IMG/VR virus record: IMGVR_UViG_3300043821_000003
Strand: one strand, 5' to 3'
Length of the DNA: 47,327 nt
DNA from: a virus
Below, in pieces: positions 12,316 through 47,327 of the stretch; position 1 is the first letter of the stretch; each line of letters opens with the position of its first letter. The position numbers and the translations under genes were made by a program. The notes below the pieces were generated by a model that had not been told where the DNA came from, did no database searches, and saw only the letters and a list, made by a program, of their open reading frames with translations.

Positions 12316-12478
12316 GATCCTGTACCTCCTGTTCGTCATCTTCCTGCTCCATCTCGATATCTGCCATCATAGCCAGATATTCAATGTCACTGTTTGCCTT
12401 TGCGATCTGTGCCTGCATTGCAGCGTTCTTCTGACGCTCTTTTACAAGCTGTTCTCTTGCACTGATAAATCCAAACAT
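12299..12478 (-). CDS. Hypothetical coiled-coil protein (59 aa from MFGF)
   Basis: GGAGGG lies 7 nt upstream of the ATG at 12478. It has an acidic C-terminus and overlaps the RT 3' end. Confidence 0.5.
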   Translation of the reverse strand: MFGFISAREQLVKERQKNAAMQAQIAKANSDIEYLAMMADIEMEQEDDEQEVQDHGEEE

Positions 12479-13575
12479 TTGCTTTCCCTCCATAAATTCT
12501 TATAATATTGATCCATACAAATAATGAGATTGTGGCAATTTCTCCTTGCCCTCCTACCCGGAGATTTCCTTTTCTTGCTACTCTCATTACCTACATGGGC
12601 TTTCCAACTTTCATAACACCTGTCAACCTCTTCCTTAGTCATGTACCCTTGCTTTGCCCTGTTTACCAACTTCCGCAGTTTCCTACGTTCGTGTGATAAC
12701 TTCTCAGGCAGTAGTGTCATGACTACCTTTCCGGTCTTTGTCAACCGGAAGCGGAAACCCAGAAACTTGATACCCTGAGTCACCTTGAAAAGCTGTGTTT
12801 TCTTCGGACTCAGTTTCAAACCTCTTGAAGATATCCAAGCATCAATCTTTATCAAACACTCCTGCAAATAAGCCTTGTCCTCATGGATGATAATGAAATC
12901 ATCGTTGTACCGGACATAGTGCTTAATGTGAAGTTGCTCTTTTATAAAATGGTCGAAGTCATCTAAGACTGCTAACTGTATAAGCTGTGTCGTTTCTGAA
13001 CCAAGACCCATGCCTACTTCTGGATCATCACCTTGATTGAAGCTGTCAATGATCCGCTTGATTTCTCCGTTCACCCATTCGTCATTGACCCTCTTTGTTA
13101 CCGCTGAGTAAGCCAGTTCATGAGAGGTGCTACCGAAGAAATTCTTCAAGTCTGCTTTGAGTACCCATCCTTCTGTACCGTGTTTCCGGTAATACTTCTG
13201 CAAGTGACAGATCAGCCTTTTCCTTGCGAACTCTGTTCCTCTTCCATCCTGACAAGCACAGTTATCATAGATAAATGATTTTGTCATGGTGTCGTAAAAG
13301 TAGTTGTCGCATAGGCTTCTCTGAAATACCCTGTCCTTGATTCTTGTACTTACAATGTCTCTTTCTTTTGGCTCATACACTTTGAACTGTGTATAAGCAT
13401 CTAACTTATATGTACCATTCTCCACGCTCTCCTTTAGCTTATGAACATTAACCAAACCATTCTTTACATACCCGGCTACACTGTCTTTCCACATGACGTT
13501 GTTCTTGCAATGCTGCATAGCCCGGTACAGATTATCAAAGTCACAGACTTCATCTCTCACTTCGGATTCCATCAT
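12442..13575 (-). CDS. DGR reverse transcriptase
   Basis: RT motifs include LGSETTQ (the DGR-type [ILV]GxxxSQ) and YVRYNDDFIIIH (YxDD). It is located next to the TR and avd. Confidence 0.9.
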   Translation of the reverse strand: MMESEVRDEVCDFDNLYRAMQHCKNNVMWKDSVAGYVKNGLVNVHKLKESVENGTYKLDAYTQFKVYEPKERDIVSTRIKDRVFQRSLCDNYFYDTMTKSFIYDNCACQDGRGTEFARKRLICHLQKYYRKHGTEGWVLKADLKNFFGSTSHELAYSAVTKRVNDEWVNGEIKRIIDSFNQGDDPEVGMGLGSETTQLIQLAVLDDFDHFIKEQLHIKHYVRYNDDFIIIHEDKAYLQECLIKIDAWISSRGLKLSPKKTQLFKVTQGIKFLGFRFRLTKTGKVVMTLLPEKLSHERRKLRKLVNRAKQGYMTKEEVDRCYESWKAHVGNESSKKRKSPGRRARRNCHNLIICMDQYYKNLWRESKCLDLSVQENSL

Positions 13576-32741: not shown

Positions 32742-32888
32742 CTATTTACATATTAACTTGAATGGCAGTGTAATCACCCAGACCATAGGGCGTACTACCA
32801 GATTTATTGTTACCCACCAACATAGTGAGAAGAACAGCTTAATACACCACCATGTAAACCACAGTAGTCCGATCACTAGATATCCCAT
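32742..32888 (-). CDS. 48-aa Trp-rich hydrophobic peptide
   Basis: MGYLVIGLLWFTWWCIKLFFSLCWWVTINLVVRPMVWVITLPFKLICK. AGGAGGG lies 7 nt upstream. Below the ORF-track cutoff. Confidence 0.5.
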   Translation of the reverse strand: MGYLVIGLLWFTWWCIKLFFSLCWWVTINLVVRPMVWVITLPFKLICK

Positions 32889-32944
32889 CTTACGCCCTCC
32901 TTTCGTCCGGGGTAGAGAAGGTAGAGTATTTTCTAATTTTGTTC

Positions 32945-32984
32945 ATACTTTTTATAATATAGTCCCTACTAGAAGAAGTTATAG
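32945..32984 (-). promoter_or_regulatory. Copy A of a repeated ~40-48-nt element (CTATAACTTCT...CTAGTAGGGA...ATTATA.AAGTAT)
   Basis: It shares four ordered blocks with copy B at 36427-36474 and lies about 60 nt upstream of the 48-aa peptide ORF. Confidence 0.5.
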
Positions 32985-33010
32985 CAAAATCGTGTTTTGC
33001 TCTACTTACT

Positions 33011-33385
33011 CTACCTCATTTCACGGTTTACACCATCCACAAATGCTGACGCATTTCTCATATTCTTGAAAGTGTACTGACCTGTGATTGCATTTATGCG
33101 AATTGTGTTGAAGCACAAGAAGTGCTTGTACTCACAATACTGAATCTTCGATACCGGGGAGGACAACCGCTGCTTCTTAATCAGTCCGGTGCGTCCCGTG
33201 ATTAAACCATCCTTCACTTCAAGCGAAGTGGTAAGCCAGTTCAGCCCACACCATGCAACGATAACCAATGCCGTAACAACCATTGCTGTACCTGCATCGT
33301 CCTTCTCTCCAATTCCTCCTACGAAGCAAAGCAACGCCAGAAATAAAGGAATGGTGTAACCTATTATGTTCTTTCTAATCTTCAT
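33011..33385 (-). CDS. Membrane protein with a bacterial PH-like (bPH_2/YdbT-type) C-terminal domain
   Basis: Two N-terminal TM helices, then SLEVKDGLITGRTGLIKKQRLSSPVSKI. Translationally coupled to the upstream HTH gene. Confidence 0.5.
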   Translation of the reverse strand: MKIRKNIIGYTIPLFLALLCFVGGIGEKDDAGTAMVVTALVIVAWCGLNWLTTSLEVKDGLITGRTGLIKKQRLSSPVSKIQYCEYKHFLCFNTIRINAITGQYTFKNMRNASAFVDGVNREMR

Positions 33386-33633
33386 GATAAGTCCTCTCTT
33401 TCATTTTCGACTTTGTACCCATCTTCCGGTACAGGCGTGTCTTTAGGGACAACCATGATCTTGTACCCCATTGCTGAAAGCATTTGCTCCAAGTTATCTA
33501 CTCTCATGCTGCTTCCACGATTCAGAATACCTGTTACATTGGATTGACTTTTGAATCCTGCCAGTTCAGCCAGTTTGGATTGACTCAGCTTTTTTAGAGT
33601 CATGATTTCTTTTACAACATCTTTTGCTGTCAT
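33382..33633 (-). CDS. XRE-family HTH regulator (83 aa from MTAKDV)
   Basis: LSQSKLAELAGFKSQSNVTGILN is an HTH. AAGGAGG precedes the ATG at 33633. Confidence 0.75.
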   Translation of the reverse strand: MTAKDVVKEIMTLKKLSQSKLAELAGFKSQSNVTGILNRGSSMRVDNLEQMLSAMGYKIMVVPKDTPVPEDGYKVENEREDLS

Positions 33634-33655
33634 ATCGCACCTCCTTGTTGACTGT

Positions 33656-33684
33656 ATTGTAGCAAATACATTTTTGTATGTCAA
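33656..33684 (-). promoter_or_regulatory. Consensus promoter TTGACA-17-TACAAT for the HTH gene, with an operator palindrome in the spacer
   Basis: -35 at 33684-33679 and -10 at 33661-33656. The operator ATACAAAAATGTAT (read on the minus strand) is at 33666-33679. Confidence 0.65.
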
Positions 33685-33738
33685 TACCTTTATGTATTAA
33701 AAGTGACTTTTTAATTTTTGCGGAACTTTCGCACCTCA

Positions 33739-33779
33739 CCCGCCCCGGCGGGCGGGGGTCTGTTTCCCCCCTCCGGGGG
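33739..33779. other. Two adjacent GC-rich hairpins (CCCGCCC-CGGC-GGGCGGG; CCCCC-CTCC-GGGGG)
   Basis: Read directly at 33739-33756 and 33766-33779. They lie in the divergent intergenic region of the island. Confidence 0.6.
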
Positions 33780-33851
33780 TATGCTGTCCCGGTGCTGTCA
33801 TCCTGTCACCAGATCACCAGAAAATAATTTTAAAATAAATACAAAAATGTA

Positions 33852-33880
33852 TTGACAAATACAAAAATGTATTATATACT
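33852..33880 (+). promoter_or_regulatory. Promoter TTGACA-17-TATACT for the plus-strand cassette, flanked by and overlapping operator palindromes
   Basis: -35 at 33852-33857 and -10 at 33875-33880. ATACAAAAATGTAT occurs at 33839-33852 and 33859-33872, and the variant ATACAAAAAGGTAT at 33892-33905. Confidence 0.65.
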
Positions 33881-34013
33881 ATACTCAACAAATACAAAAA
33901 GGTATTTGATAGCCAACAAATAATTATAGGCTGTCAATGCTGCTGTACAGCAGGCAAGCCGCCCGGTGTACAGATTGCACAAATTGATAATTGAATATAG
34001 GAGGTCAAGTATT

Positions 34014-34391
34014 ATGAGAGAATACGCAGAGATCAAGGAAACATTAGAAACTAGAAAAGACCGCAGTGCATGGGATAAAGGCGTTACAATATACTCCCTT
34101 GAATTATTAGAAGAATATGCAGAGCGGGCAGCGTATGAGGGCAGACAGGCAGCCAACACCGCAGAGTTTAAAGAGTGGCTAAAGAATGGGGCTTCTGACT
34201 GGGATCAATACAGTTGGGGCGGTTCATCCCTTATTTATAACTCAGACATTGCAGAGCGGCTCTGCTGCCCGTCAGAACTCAAAAAGACCCGCAACGGTGA
34301 ACGCAGACCTAACAGCCGTGAGGAATGGTTAGACACTCAGGCAAGAGCATTGCGTCAGGCTGCGGGCAGGCTCACAAGAGCCGCTTTCTAA
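34014..34391 (+). CDS. Hypothetical protein (125 aa), a family seen by me on Firmicutes mobile elements
   Basis: RBS is AGGAGG. Motifs SAWDKGV...YSWGGSSLIYNSDIAERLC.PSELKKTRNGERRPN..EEWLDTQARAL. Function unknown. Confidence 0.6.
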   Translation: MREYAEIKETLETRKDRSAWDKGVTIYSLELLEEYAERAAYEGRQAANTAEFKEWLKNGASDWDQYSWGGSSLIYNSDIAERLCCPSELKKTRNGERRPNSREEWLDTQARALRQAAGRLTRAAF

Positions 34392-34492
34392 CCCGTGTGG
34401 GCGGGTATAAATAGCCAGTTAAGCCCACAGCGTCCCGGCTCTGCCGGGGGTCTGGAAACAGTACATAATTGAATAATTGGAGGTATAGAACA

Positions 34493-34729
34493 ATGACAGC
34501 TAAAGAATATTGTTTAACACATGATAGTGTAGCCTATGCAAGTATGTTGGGCGGTGTAGAGATCAAGGGTATTGAATACGGCATAACAGACAGCATTTAT
34601 TGTGTATGTGGTGCGTGGTGTAGTGAAAAGAGTTATCATCATGTAAAAATACACTACACAGCCCACGGCATCCCGTTCTTTATTGTACACGGTCAACGGG
34701 TTTACATGGGTGAATGTATCAGGATGTAA
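34493..34729 (+). CDS. Hypothetical protein (78 aa)
   Basis: RBS is GGAGG. Its leader ATAATTGAATA resembles the leader of the preceding gene. Confidence 0.5.
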   Translation: MTAKEYCLTHDSVAYASMLGGVEIKGIEYGITDSIYCVCGAWCSEKSYHHVKIHYTAHGIPFFIVHGQRVYMGECIRM

Positions 34730-34802
34730 CCAACAACAGCCCCGGCAGCAGTCCGGGGCATTGGTTTATAATGCAGCCATAGGCGGTCACAAGCCCGCAT
34801 AA

Positions 34803-35570
34803 ATGCAGAGTGTAAACCGATATAGAAAAGGACGTGATAGAGTGAAAAGAGTTTGGAGAACGCCAGAACTTGACTATTACAACCTTTACGCCGATATGCT
34901 ACAACAGCCCCATTTACTAATTGCAGGTGCTACGGGCAGCGGTAAAAGCGTTGTAATAAATGGCATGATGACAACAGCACTAAAGGACAGCCCCGCCGCT
35001 GTACAGTTTATATTGATCGACCCTAAACGGGTTGAACTGGTGGACTATAAAGAACTACCCCACACGCTGCGTTATAGCAGTGAACCGGGTGAAATGGTAC
35101 AGGCATTACAGGAAGCTATAACGATAACAGACAACCGTTATAGAGACATGGCACGGCAGCACGTCAAGAAATACGGCGGCGGTGCTGTGTATGTGGTTAT
35201 TGATGAACTAGCCGACCTGATGACAACCAACAAAAAGCAAGTGCAACCGATATTGCAACGGCTTTGTCAGATCGGCAGGGCGGCAAATGTCCACGTTGTA
35301 GCCGCTACACAGTGCCCGTTGTCTGCTGTGATCCCTACACCTATAAAAGTAAACTTTGATAGCCGTGTAGCACTCAGAACCCGCAGCGGACAGGACAGCA
35401 GAAACATTTTAGGCGTGACAGGTTGCGAACTCTTACCCCGGTACGGTCAAGGCTATTACATGACCCCGGAGGGTTGCAAGCTGTATAATATCCCGATGTA
35501 TGAGGATGAAACCCCGGACATAATAGAATATTGGAGGAAACAGAAACCCCGGATTGTATGGAATGGATAG
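34803..35570 (+). CDS. FtsK/SpoIIIE (HerA-related) family P-loop ATPase, motor domain only
   Basis: Walker A IAGATGSGKS, Walker B VYVVIDELADL, plus GRAANVHVVAATQ. No TM or gamma domain. Start uncertain (ATG 34803 or GTG 34842). Confidence 0.8.
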   Translation: MQSVNRYRKGRDRVKRVWRTPELDYYNLYADMLQQPHLLIAGATGSGKSVVINGMMTTALKDSPAAVQFILIDPKRVELVDYKELPHTLRYSSEPGEMVQALQEAITITDNRYRDMARQHVKKYGGGAVYVVIDELADLMTTNKKQVQPILQRLCQIGRAANVHVVAATQCPLSAVIPTPIKVNFDSRVALRTRSGQDSRNILGVTGCELLPRYGQGYYMTPEGCKLYNIPMYEDETPDIIEYWRKQKPRIVWNG

Positions 35571-35577
35571 AACGCCC

Positions 35578-35604
35578 GCCCCGTATGATCCGGGGCTTTC
35601 TTTA
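35578..35604 (+). terminator. Intrinsic terminator after the FtsK-like gene (GCCCCG-7 nt-CGGGGC + TTTCTTT)
   Basis: Stem at 35578-35583 and 35591-35596, followed by a T-rich tract. Confidence 0.55.
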
Positions 35605-35622
35605 TGCCCTCAGAACGCACAC

Positions 35623-35658
35623 ACGCCCCGGCAGCAGGTCTTTCCTACACCGGGGCGT
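35623..35658. other. 9-bp GC-rich hairpin (ACGCCCCGG-18 nt-CCGGGGCGT) 12 nt beyond the terS stop
   Basis: It shares GCCCCGGCAGCAG with the hairpin at 34739-34759. Confidence 0.55.
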
Positions 35659-35669
35659 ATTTCATCAGC

Positions 35670-36323
35670 TTATTTGATTTTAGGGCTTTCTGCCCCTTCT
35701 GCGACTTCTGAGATTTCACCTTCTGGCACGTCTACAATGTCGGCATTGTCAAGATACTTTCTTGCAAGGGCTTCTGTGTCGGCACTGTCACCCAACGGAT
35801 TGTTAGGAGTCAGAACCATTTCTGTCTGATCCTTCATACCGTCATAGTTCTTCTGCCAGAATATGCCAGTGACAGGGTTGACCTTGCCATCCTGCATAAG
35901 TCCCTCACGGTATAAAGCACACACTTTCTGCACCTTTTTGATAAAGTCGGTGCGGGCGGGGTTCGTTGTACAACGGTTGACCCACTCCCATGCAATACCC
36001 TTATCTATTCCTATTGCAGCATACGCAGCTTGATTGCCTATCTTCATATCGTACTTTGCACACGTTTCCAGATAGTGCATGAACCGTCTTTCCATCTCTT
36101 CTATGTCGTTATAGTCCAACTTCTCAGACGGCATGATCTCCATAGTGAACTGAATCATCCGGGAGTTATACCCTTCTGGCAGATCAGGATTGTGACCCTG
36201 TACAATCGGGCTATTTTCTCTTGCTTTTTCCAAGTTCGCAGGGCTACTCTTCTGATACCCCTCTGTCTTTCTGGGCTTTCTGTCCTTCCCTCTCGTTCTG
36301 GGCTTCTTCTGTTCTTCTGCCAT
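35670..36323 (-). CDS. terS: Terminase small subunit
   Basis: 217 aa with a basic N-terminus and the C-terminal pattern NPVTGIFWQKNYDGMKDQ typical of terS proteins. RBS is AAAGGAG. Confidence 0.7.
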   Translation of the reverse strand: MAEEQKKPRTRGKDRKPRKTEGYQKSSPANLEKARENSPIVQGHNPDLPEGYNSRMIQFTMEIMPSEKLDYNDIEEMERRFMHYLETCAKYDMKIGNQAAYAAIGIDKGIAWEWVNRCTTNPARTDFIKKVQKVCALYREGLMQDGKVNPVTGIFWQKNYDGMKDQTEMVLTPNNPLGDSADTEALARKYLDNADIVDVPEGEISEVAEGAESPKIK

Positions 36324-46061: not shown

Positions 46062-47111
46062 TCAATCCTTCCTCTTCTTCGGAGTGAAACGGTACTCAGG
46101 CTTTTCAGTCTCAGTCATGTACTTATCAAGCACACCGTCCTTCTCCATTGCTTCTGTATCAAAATCCTGTTTCTTCTTCATGCTGACGGTAGTGACAAAA
46201 TCATAGCTGCCACCTGTGATCGTAACAGTCTTATCACCCGGCTTGAACTGGCTCATACTTGCTTCTTTAATCAGTTCTTTCAGCTTTTCCAGACGCTTTT
46301 CATCGTCAGCTACAGTTGCATTGACCTCTTCGATGTGAAGCATAAGCCCTTCGGCTTCCTTCACCATTGCGTCCAGATCGGAGTCAGGGGAGAGGTTGTT
46401 ATCTCTCAGCACTTTCAGAATGTCAGCGTCAGCCTTTTCATCATACTTCGGAGATACACCGCCCTCTACATGAGTTTTCCACCATTTTTTAACCTGCGTG
46501 ATCGTTTTCTTCATGTTCGGATATCTCTCAGACACCTTAAACGGACGAACGAAAGTATTCTCAGCCTTACACTCATAAGCTGCCGGGTCATCGTAGTCCT
46601 TCTCACCCAGAACCGAACACACCATGATTACGTCATCAACTCCAAGCAGGTAAGCGTAAAGTGCAGCCTGTAAAGCATAATACTCAGGTACATCTTCCAC
46701 CCAGTCCTCAGACCTCTTCGTGGTTTTCATTTCCAGTACCGTTTGCGGTTTACCTTCCTTGTCCACGAGCAGATAATCCCACATACCACCGAAGATCGGT
46801 GTATCACGGAAGAAATCTCCCCACGTTTTCTTGAAGTAGTCCTCACCGTACACATCCGTAGGTGTAATCAGATTGCTCATGAAGTATGCAGTTTTCATGT
46901 ACTCTGCCTGCTTCGGCTCAATCGTCTTACCTGCGATAGTGTAGATCGTGTCCTCAAACGGTTCTTCGTAGGTTCTGGTGATTGCACACCACGCATTGAA
47001 CGGGCTTGTCCACTTATTCAGACCCATGATTGCTGCAAATCGTGTACCTGTGATCTTCTTCGGTTTCGCAGGTGGTGTAATCGTGATGGTTTTATCGTCA
47101 TTCCACTTCAT
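46062..47111 (-). CDS. YqaJ/lambda-exonuclease-like recombination exonuclease (PD-(D/E)XK)
   Basis: 349 aa from MKWNDDKT with RBS AAGGAGG. Motifs GTRFAAIMG, LEMKTTK, EYYALQAALYAYLL. Partner of the ERF protein. Confidence 0.75.
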   Translation of the reverse strand: MKWNDDKTITITPPAKPKKITGTRFAAIMGLNKWTSPFNAWCAITRTYEEPFEDTIYTIAGKTIEPKQAEYMKTAYFMSNLITPTDVYGEDYFKKTWGDFFRDTPIFGGMWDYLLVDKEGKPQTVLEMKTTKRSEDWVEDVPEYYALQAALYAYLLGVDDVIMVCSVLGEKDYDDPAAYECKAENTFVRPFKVSERYPNMKKTITQVKKWWKTHVEGGVSPKYDEKADADILKVLRDNNLSPDSDLDAMVKEAEGLMLHIEEVNATVADDEKRLEKLKELIKEASMSQFKPGDKTVTITGGSYDFVTTVSMKKKQDFDTEAMEKDGVLDKYMTETEKPEYRFTPKKRKD

Positions 47112-47327
47112 AGAACTGTCCTCCTTCTTAAATGTACTGCTTCCACAGCTTTGCAAAAGTGCTTCTGCCATCCCCGCCCTTCTTATTCAGACGGGTATAT
47201 CCTGCACGTTTCATATTCGCTCTTGCGATCATTCTCTTAAATTTCCTCATTACTTCTGCCCTCCATGTAACGGGGTTCGCTTTCCCCGATTGTTCTACAG
47301 TCAATCAGTTCCTTAATTTGTCCATCC
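46636..47327. repeat. Wrap-around copy (same sequence as 1-692)
   Basis: See the 1-692 entry. This is consistent with a circular or circularly permuted assembly, or with a terminal redundancy. Confidence 0.95.

Follow-up and report, generated by a model that had tools for sequence, protein, structure and literature searches.

Self-cleaving ribozymes among prophage genes have been described since 2011, when multiple hammerheads were found to flank single genes or short blocks whose content varies, one array surrounding ardA (PMC3088659). Transcripts of about 2 kb, including that of Clostridium scindens, were cleaved in vitro (PMC3088659). The pistol ribozyme, common in Firmicutes, came to light in a search near ribozyme-associated phage genes (PMC4604425). 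Reviews describe the reason for the gene association as unknown and suggest processing of polycistronic transcripts; why bacteria and phages retain pistol, twister, and hammerhead ribozymes beside the same genes is a question open since 2011-2015 (PMC6765202, PMC10085705). Here we describe a plus-strand cassette at 34014-35570 of the IMG/VR virus record IMGVR_UViG_3300043821_000003 (the window, a stretch of 47,327 bases), which belongs to this already known type of arrangement. In a temperate Lachnospiraceae/Clostridia gut-phage lineage, an accessory island separates a TerS-like gene from the TerL gene, and the cassette makes up its rightward arm. By sequence and covariation, its intergenic hairpin regions at 34391-34455 and 34765-34816 are a pistol and a twister ribozyme with predicted self-cleavage. 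Comparison of relatives marks gene 1 and gene 2 as swappable cargo and the FtsK-like ATPase as the sole fixed gene of the cassette.

The original prediction had read the region as three genes, each bracketed by related GC-rich hairpins. Three plus-strand open reading frames (ORFs) are indeed present at 34014-34391 (gene 1, 125 residues), 34493-34729 (gene 2, 78 residues), and 34803-35570 (ATPase, 255 residues), and the listed hairpins at 34434-34448, 34739-34759, 35578-35596, and 35623-35658 fold as claimed. The shared motifs are real as well, with GCCCCGGCAGCAG occurring twice (34739 and 35625) and CGGGGGTCTG twice (33753 and 34445), each against approximately zero expected. The intergenic hairpins are related, non-random elements, but not generic gene brackets: they are parts of a pistol and a twister ribozyme.

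The pistol self-cleaving ribozyme (34391-34455, plus strand) was matched by Rfam RF02679 with 65.2 bits against a cut-off of 34.5, covering positions 1-68 of the 68-position model, and pistol is the sole Rfam family found window-wide at the curated threshold. Its first base is the last base of the gene 1 stop codon. A hairpin at 34397-34428, overlooked at first reading, forms one pistol together with the hairpin 34434-34448 and CGGGGGTCTG. The hairpin 34434-34448 is stem P3, and the CGGGGGTCTG copy at 34445 contains the cleavage dinucleotide together with the 3′ arm of P3 and the first part of P2. Rfam detected the pistol in eight of eight relatives tested, each time within the cassette. In an alignment of 12 copies, 98.5% of the cells are paired and compensatory changes occur at 15 of 22 pairs; P1, P2, P3, and the pseudoknot from the P1 loop to the junction all covary, and none of 500 shuffles reached the observed values. 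A conserved loop between covarying arms characterizes the linker after slot 1, the slot of gene 1, in many loci. The predicted cut lies between G34450 and U34451, the dinucleotide having been placed via alignment to the family consensus.

The second region holds a twister ribozyme of type P1 that lacks P3 (34765-34816, plus strand; Rfam RF03160, 58.2 bits, E 5.6e-12, full model). In twisters, P1, P2, and P4 are essential, P3 is present in 78% and absent in 22%, and P0 is an optional stem (PMC5408937). P1, P2, and P4 are all found in this copy, and U34769-A34770 is located between P1 and P2; the predicted cut separates these two bases and was again placed via consensus alignment. Among 15 distinct copies, the core is invariant, 97% of the cells are paired, and P1 and P4 covary. 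A TATAAT at 34767-34772, tried as an internal promoter, was rejected as part of the twister core. The GC-rich hairpin 34739-34759 (plus strand, −16.3 kcal/mol) lies 5 nt upstream of the twister, and equivalent hairpins precede the twisters of relatives. It may represent the optional stem P0 or cap the gene-2 message at its 3′ end, or do both. Hairpin and twister stand directly before the ribosome-binding site of the ATPase gene.

Relatives were sampled as 80 viral loci and 12 bacterial-genome loci via the ATPase and as 79 loci via the TerS-like gene. Covariance models built from our own pistol and twister alignments were run on both strands of 986 kb of relatives and found 50 pistols (46 sources) and 23 twisters. 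All of these matches are on the ATPase strand, no more than approximately 1.7 kb upstream of the ATPase. Type II hammerheads take this place in L059-L061, L065, and L072, which have neither pistol nor twister. Hammerhead II is also located upstream of the ATPase in the most distant lineage, with three copies approximately 345 nt apart in L103 and one in L163; these hammerheads (L103:7839-8596 and L163:9760-9827, both on the minus strand) punctuate the genes upstream of the ATPase. Perfect GC-rich hairpins are concentrated around the ATPase start in the 80 viral relatives, where the interval from −1500 to +1000 has 10-30 times their density elsewhere, and six of the 13 such hairpins of the window fall within 33739-35657.

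Could the GC-rich elements be mere terminators, mRNA stabilisers, or integron-attC-like sites that match Rfam by chance? A terminator scan picked up several of them, and ORF-plus-hairpin units behind one promoter look like an integron array. We nevertheless hold this to be very improbable, as the full-length pistol scores at nearly twice its curated cut-off with compensatory changes in all four helices, the twister combines an invariant core with covariation of P1 and P4, and three ribozyme classes alternate in the slot. Furthermore, a T-run is missing from most hairpins, and no integron-type (IntI tyrosine) integrase is adjacent. The plain-terminator, integron-like, and attC-like readings were dropped after the Rfam matches and the covariation.

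The three genes of the cassette do not form a unit. Of the 80 viral loci sampled via the ATPase, approximately 25 contain gene 1 and seven contain gene 2, and all three genes occur together only in L001, L022, L024, and L027. The original prediction had taken the three genes for one system and expected such a system to co-occur elsewhere; because the trio does not do so as a unit, a fixed trio is refuted. The upstream ORFs cluster into 70 families in the 80 loci and are combined in varying arrangements, three main families alternating in slot 1 and many occupying slot 2. Comparison with phages of approximately 95% identity locates the exchange. Homology is kept over 33707-34016, 34400-34484, and from 34738 on, and is lost over 34017-34399 and 34485-34737. 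The first kept block consists of the promoter region and the leader down to the gene-1 start codon. Since homology breaks over the cargo ORFs and resumes at the ribozyme/leader linkers, single ORFs are swapped between conserved linkers. The ribozyme positions are kept in relatives, whether by pistol, twister, or hammerhead II, while the ORFs between them differ.

These findings also bear on the idea that the three genes form one anti-phage or superinfection-exclusion module around a HerA/FtsK-type ATPase, expressed from the prophage. In favour of it, the cassette is built like a moron, lying opposite to the lytic genes and having a promoter and terminators to itself; PADLOC matches the ATPase to the FtsK-like domains of SspH (7e-27) and mad8 (3.5e-26), and the leftward island arm of relatives can hold an Mrr-type nuclease domain. 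We regard it as improbable, given that the trio occurs in only four of 80 loci, that genes 1 and 2 have been exchanged independently of each other even among the approximately 95%-identical phages, and that conservation of the ATPase, traceable to 39% identity, resembles that of a core phage gene. The PADLOC matches reflect the shared ATPase fold only, no partner genes being present, and the defence-system hint of the original prediction gained nothing from them. Among the known defence systems of PADLOC-DB, the ATPase matched only FtsK-like parts of the SspH, mad8, and HerA models, and gene 1, gene 2, and the helix-turn-helix (HTH) and membrane proteins of the leftward arm had no match.

Upstream of gene 1, two divergent promoters share a set of putative operators. 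The cassette promoter is TTGACA-17-TATACT at 33852-33880 on the plus strand (11 of 12 consensus matches), and a sigma-70-type promoter, TTGACA-17-TACAAT with TG, at 33656-33684 on the minus strand (also 11 of 12) drives the HTH operon. The 14-bp palindrome ATACAAAAATGTAT is present in five copies, three exact and two variants, within 33666-33905, against 0.69 matches expected, and none of 100 shuffles reached five. The copies overlap both promoters: one is in the spacer of the leftward promoter, and those at 33839-33852 and 33859-33872 overlap the rightward one. Because of the divergent HTH gene and the palindromic operators, repressor control is indicated, in the simplest view exerted on both promoters by the HTH protein via the palindromes.

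Taken with the ribozymes and the exchange, this arrangement makes it likely, in our judgement, that a repressor-controlled transcript is ribozyme-cut into single-gene messages carrying swappable cargo and a constant ATPase. Entry of the DNA into a repressor-free cell would switch the operon on, and it would be shut down later. The promoter at 33852-33880 would yield one transcript across gene 1, gene 2, and the ATPase gene, which would cut itself between G34450 and U34451 and between U34769 and A34770 into three messages. The folded pistol, or the P0-like hairpin, would cap the 3′ end of the upstream message, and the twister fold with its 5′-OH would cap the 5′ end of the ATPase message. Expression of each gene would thereby become independent of its neighbours, and the ribozyme/leader linkers would supply the homology for recombinational exchange of cargo ORFs.

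The constant component is an FtsK/SpoIIIE beta-domain-only ATPase (34842-35570, plus strand), the conserved anchor gene of the cassette. The ORF from 34803 exists, but the likelier start is GTG 34842, which gives 242 residues, because homologs have 242-244 residues and ATG 34803 is inside the twister. Both motifs named in the original prediction, Walker A GATGSGKS and Walker B VVIDELADL, are in the protein. It had been called FtsK/HerA-like: a soluble, motor-only FtsK/SpoIIIE-type protein is borne out, and the HerA match is marginal (PF01935, 4e-4). The ATPase matches PF01580 FtsK_SpoIIIE (4e-33, 115 bits against a cut-off of 24) and phrog_1358 (3e-58), and aligns with the beta (RecA-like) domain alone, residues 208-465 of the 491-residue FtsK motor chain 2iuu (1.4e-33). 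As had been claimed for the membrane anchor and the gamma domain, Pfam gave no such domain matches; by Pfam and the 2iuu alignment, none of the canonical N-terminal membrane anchor, alpha domain, and gamma domain was found in the 242 residues. Residues G29, G32, G34, K35, S36, E122-L126, and R146 are invariant and D121 nearly so, and Walker A, IDPK, Walker B, R146, and the ATQ sensor are invariant or nearly so down to 34% identity. In our own mapping, R146 aligns with the FtsK residue that we take to be the arginine finger. As this trans-acting arginine is conserved, an oligomeric, active ATPase is implied, and the protein is probably an oligomeric, ATP-driven translocase of double-stranded DNA that acts on phage or host DNA.

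Homologs of the ATPase number at least 7,992 in the protein collection, and mycobacteriophage FtsK-like proteins have 41-43% identity to it over 77-80% of its length. The gene is present in all ATPase- or TerS-seeded loci with room for it, even where identity has dropped to 49% for the TerS-like protein and 39% for the ATPase; among TerS-seeded loci, only the two most distant, L168 and L171, form an exception, and these have no antisense island. Across loci it is convergent with the TerS-like gene and mostly located between this gene and TerL. In L103 and L163, the ATPase has 374-390 residues with an extra N-terminal region and 39% identity, and is still convergent with the TerS-like gene. In L075-L080, the ATPase (63-65% identity) is found without a TerS-like homolog. 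A lone homolog with 61% identity and the Walker A variant GAPGSGKS is at L088:7998-8732 (plus strand), beside a recF-like gene in a high-GC Clostridiales bin, with no phage genes within 8 kb, and may have been domesticated or be a remnant. Our literature search found no functional study of phage FtsK-like proteins, and no paper tying FtsK to ribozymes, published lists of ribozyme-associated genes not being covered.

The position of the ATPase gene opposite the late genes, between the TerS-like gene and TerL, was confirmed, and raises the possibility that the ATPase is a packaging- or genome-end-linked factor working with the TerS-like protein, for instance at a pac site, so that the place of the cassette is itself functional. 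Loci with room for it keep the convergent pair, including L103 and L163-L167, in which the TerL and D5 queries have no more matches; TerS is fused to an FtsK gamma domain in Bacillus phages (PMC8190038), and the ATPase matches phrog_2666, labelled terminase large subunit, at 1e-13. We think this unlikely: a conventional TerL with a nuclease domain is already present, the ATPase is encoded in a separate, opposite, repressor-controlled operon with variable cargo, and each gene occurs without the other, the ATPase in L075-L080 and the TerS-like gene in L168 and L171.

Far less probable is a conjugation coupling protein (TcpA/TraB/VirD4-like) or type VII secretion ATPase (EssC-like) that serves export of the element or the small proteins. 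It would be in keeping with weak matches to TcpA (6o1x, 6e-8), plasmid TraB (2.4e-7), and EccC/EssC domains (1e-13 to 1e-20); the small upstream proteins recall secretion substrates, and gene-1 relatives are sometimes fused to DUF3849. Yet the match to the FtsK motor (1.4e-33) is the strongest by a wide margin, the coupling-protein and type VII matches being far weaker. The protein has no membrane anchor, the 46.6-kb genome contains no relaxase, type IV, or type VII secretion genes, and the small proteins are not conserved partners.

The cargo itself is poorly matched to known proteins. The slot-1 cargo, gene 1 (34014-34391, plus strand, 125 residues), belongs to a family of 4,782 proteins by word-based search (1,087 clusters at 50% identity). 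Its AlphaFold2 model is all-helical with seven helices and a pLDDT (predicted local distance difference test) score of 97.2. Foldseek comparison of this model with the PDB and BFVD gave only E ≥ 0.4, the VIA wide search a best Z of 5.9, within helical noise, and a profile search against PDB sequences nothing meaningful; the ESM Atlas had nothing usable for gene 1 or gene 2. The gene-1 domain is often the C-terminal part of proteins of 200-400 residues, and three of ten relatives tested (P0243, P0265, and P0292) have an N-terminal DUF3849. The slot-2 cargo, gene 2 (34493-34729, plus strand, 78 residues, phrog_17101), is rare, forming five clusters, with relatives of 30-34% identity in a few Enterocloster phages. 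An alternative slot-1 family, C1, of approximately 125 residues has an isoelectric point of 4.05 and a net charge of −28 and no Pfam match (L003:5106-5480, plus strand, and 18 other loci); its composition hints, by analogy, at DNA-mimic anti-restriction proteins. Judged by such analogies, the cargo probably consists of host-takeover or anti-defence genes.

A more far-reaching reading makes the array a plug-and-play immediate-early anti-defence operon, with the ribozymes as expression insulators and recombination junctions and the beta-only ATPase, invariably the last gene and next to the TerS-like gene, as a new phage DNA pump or protein-stripping motor for genome entry or the packaging end. 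We consider it speculative and doubtful; if it were true, this lineage would explain why unrelated ribozyme classes gather round the same phage genes.

Several points weigh against the ribozyme-cut, repressor-controlled operon and its extensions. The twister score of 58.2 bits is below the curated cut-off of 67.2, a shortfall due to the missing optional P3 hairpin. No ribozyme is detectable in L022, L024, L027, and L075-L080, so ribozymes are not obligatory for the operon. Cleavage, transcript ends, and promoter use are all what we infer, the cut sites rest on consensus alignment, and the timing of expression, early in infection or in lysogeny, is a guess. The absence of alpha and gamma domains weakens the case for ring formation and DNA translocation by the ATPase. 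As for the cargo, the confident gene 1 model has no fold match above noise among solved or viral predicted structures, Pfam gave no matches for ten cargo representatives, and the anti-defence link is by analogy plus one acidic family.

The leftward arm of the island (32742-33684, minus strand) encodes the HTH regulator (33382-33684, 100 residues, HTH_3 at 1.5e-5), a bPH-like protein with two transmembrane segments (33011-33385; bPH_2 at 0.021, a weak match), and a 48-residue peptide (32742-32888). This arm is swapped as well, even among near-identical phages: homology to L003 breaks over 32743-33706. Swapped arms are found at L003:3745-4768, L062:3568-4853, and L066:2201-3049. Alternatives include a TM2-domain protein with two HTH proteins, and an Mrr_cat nuclease domain with a small serine recombinase; resolvase-like recombinases are in the leftward arm of approximately 14 loci.

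Between the two arms, a conserved GC-rich element (33716-33830, plus strand) lies upstream of the cassette promoter and holds a hairpin at 33739-33756 and one CGGGGGTCTG copy. Its layout is TTTTGCGGAAyTTTC, TCACCCGCCCC, GGGGGT, and TCCCCC, in this order with intervening sequence, and it has overlapping alternative hairpins. It is retained in approximately 50 distinct relatives and matches no Rfam family. In some relatives, TTTTGCGGA is present a second time at this element, with AACTTCTCTTAGAAG after it. The leader ATAATTGAATA followed by GGAGG does precede both gene 1 and gene 2, as originally claimed; it is kept only among the closest relatives and is therefore not a lineage-wide signal. Within the gene 1 leader of approximately 127 nt is a palindrome, CTGCTGTACAGCAG (33939-33953, plus strand).

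At the other end of the cassette, two GC-rich hairpins separate the convergent ATPase and TerS-like genes (35578-35658): 35578-35596, which is followed by a T-run, and 35623-35658. Their folding energies are −12.1 and −21.8 kcal/mol (the latter with z −4.5), compared with −16.7 kcal/mol for 34434-34448. The minus-strand fold of 35578-35658 has −49.4 kcal/mol with z −4.4, and the pair is likely a two-way terminator.

The TerS-like protein (35670-36323, minus strand, 217 residues) is encoded upstream of the TerL and portal genes, with the island in between. Its model is helical with a mean pLDDT of 62.7, and its confidently modelled core 49-161 resembles the P22 small terminase gp3 (3p9a; Z 9.0, root mean square deviation 3.5, 102 residues; next hit 6.8). 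Pfam, PHROG, NCBIfam, and PDB-sequence searches gave no match, nor did Pfam on 12 members or a profile search against the PDB, and Foldseek of the model gave nothing significant (phage protein phBC6A51, 2ao9, at E 2.3). TerS is the best label that the modelled core fold and the position offer, and it is not firm.

An exact 692-bp direct repeat at the ends (1-692 = 46636-47327) marks the window as a complete phage genome of 46.6 kb; the sequence was either assembled as a circle or the repeat is the terminal redundancy of the genome. The minus strand carries nearly all genes, including, by Pfam and PHROG matches, TerL, a D5-type primase-helicase, an anaerobic ribonucleotide reductase, a reverse transcriptase, and an endolysin. 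The phage is marked as temperate by its large serine recombinase (integrase), which is encoded on the plus strand. The reverse transcriptase gene (12442-13575, minus strand, RVT_1 at 4e-20) is among the tail-region genes, which suggests a diversity-generating retroelement. Relatives are prophages or viral contigs of gut and rumen Clostridia, the named hosts being Oribacterium, Moryella indoligenes DSM 19659, Mediterraneibacter, and Butyricicoccus. Prophage copies are found in the type strain Moryella indoligenes DSM 19659, in assemblies assigned to Oribacterium sp. and Mediterraneibacter faecis, and in other Clostridia; no nucleotide match to the cassette was found among isolated phage genomes.

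The annotation of the locus is corrected in two respects: the start codon of the ATPase gene is shifted to 34842, and ribozymes replace terminators as the label of two intergenic regions. Two swappable ORFs and a conserved ATPase, served by a single regulated promoter and two ribozymes, make it a compact, testable case, whose natural variants already reveal the exchangeable parts in a lineage abundant in the human gut.

At the level of its parts, the cassette resembles known families closely. The ribozymes share secondary structures, conserved nucleotides, and expected cuts with the RF02679 pistol (G and U after P3) and the RF03160 twister (U and A between P1 and P2), except that this twister lacks P3. 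The ATPase has the RecA-like beta domain, Walker A/B, arginine finger, and ATQ of the FtsK/SpoIIIE translocases (2iuu, 2ius, PF01580), but with approximately 242 residues it lacks their membrane anchor, alpha domain, and gamma domain, the last reading FtsK-orienting polar sequences (KOPS). Its kin are the phage FtsK-like DNA translocase genes (phrog_1358) of cluster J mycobacteriophages and many Bacillus phages, which PHROGs categorizes as morons/host takeover.

As an arrangement, the cassette differs from integron cassettes in that its inter-ORF elements are ribozymes and no tyrosine integrase is adjacent; in some relatives, the other arm encodes small serine recombinases. Anti-CRISPR operons with an Aca repressor and plasmid leading-region anti-defence genes likewise have HTH-controlled strong promoters and small, fast-swapping genes of unknown fold. 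Unlike in Aca-type operons, the HTH gene here is divergent and outside the operon, and no cargo matches a known anti-defence family. The PeSL (promoter early stem-loop) cassettes of T4-type phages also have short conserved regulatory elements that flank variable ORFs of a plastic region, at the breakpoints where close relatives differ by gene replacement (PMC2839356, PMC4122927); here these elements are ribozymes and ribosome-binding-site leaders within one operon, not promoter-terminator pairs, and the phage and host groups are unrelated. Closest are the ribozyme-flanked prophage operons (PMC3088659, PMC4604425, PMC10085705), with which the cassette shares differing ribozyme classes between single genes, variable flanked genes, Clostridia among the hosts, and anti-restriction-like cargo, ardA in the 2011 arrays and the acidic family in this lineage. 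What is new relative to them is the conserved FtsK-like ATPase as the fixed last gene, the fixed antisense site between the TerS-like and TerL genes, the promoter under a divergent HTH/operator switch, and near-identical genomes in which ORF exchange is seen exactly at the ribozyme/leader linkers.

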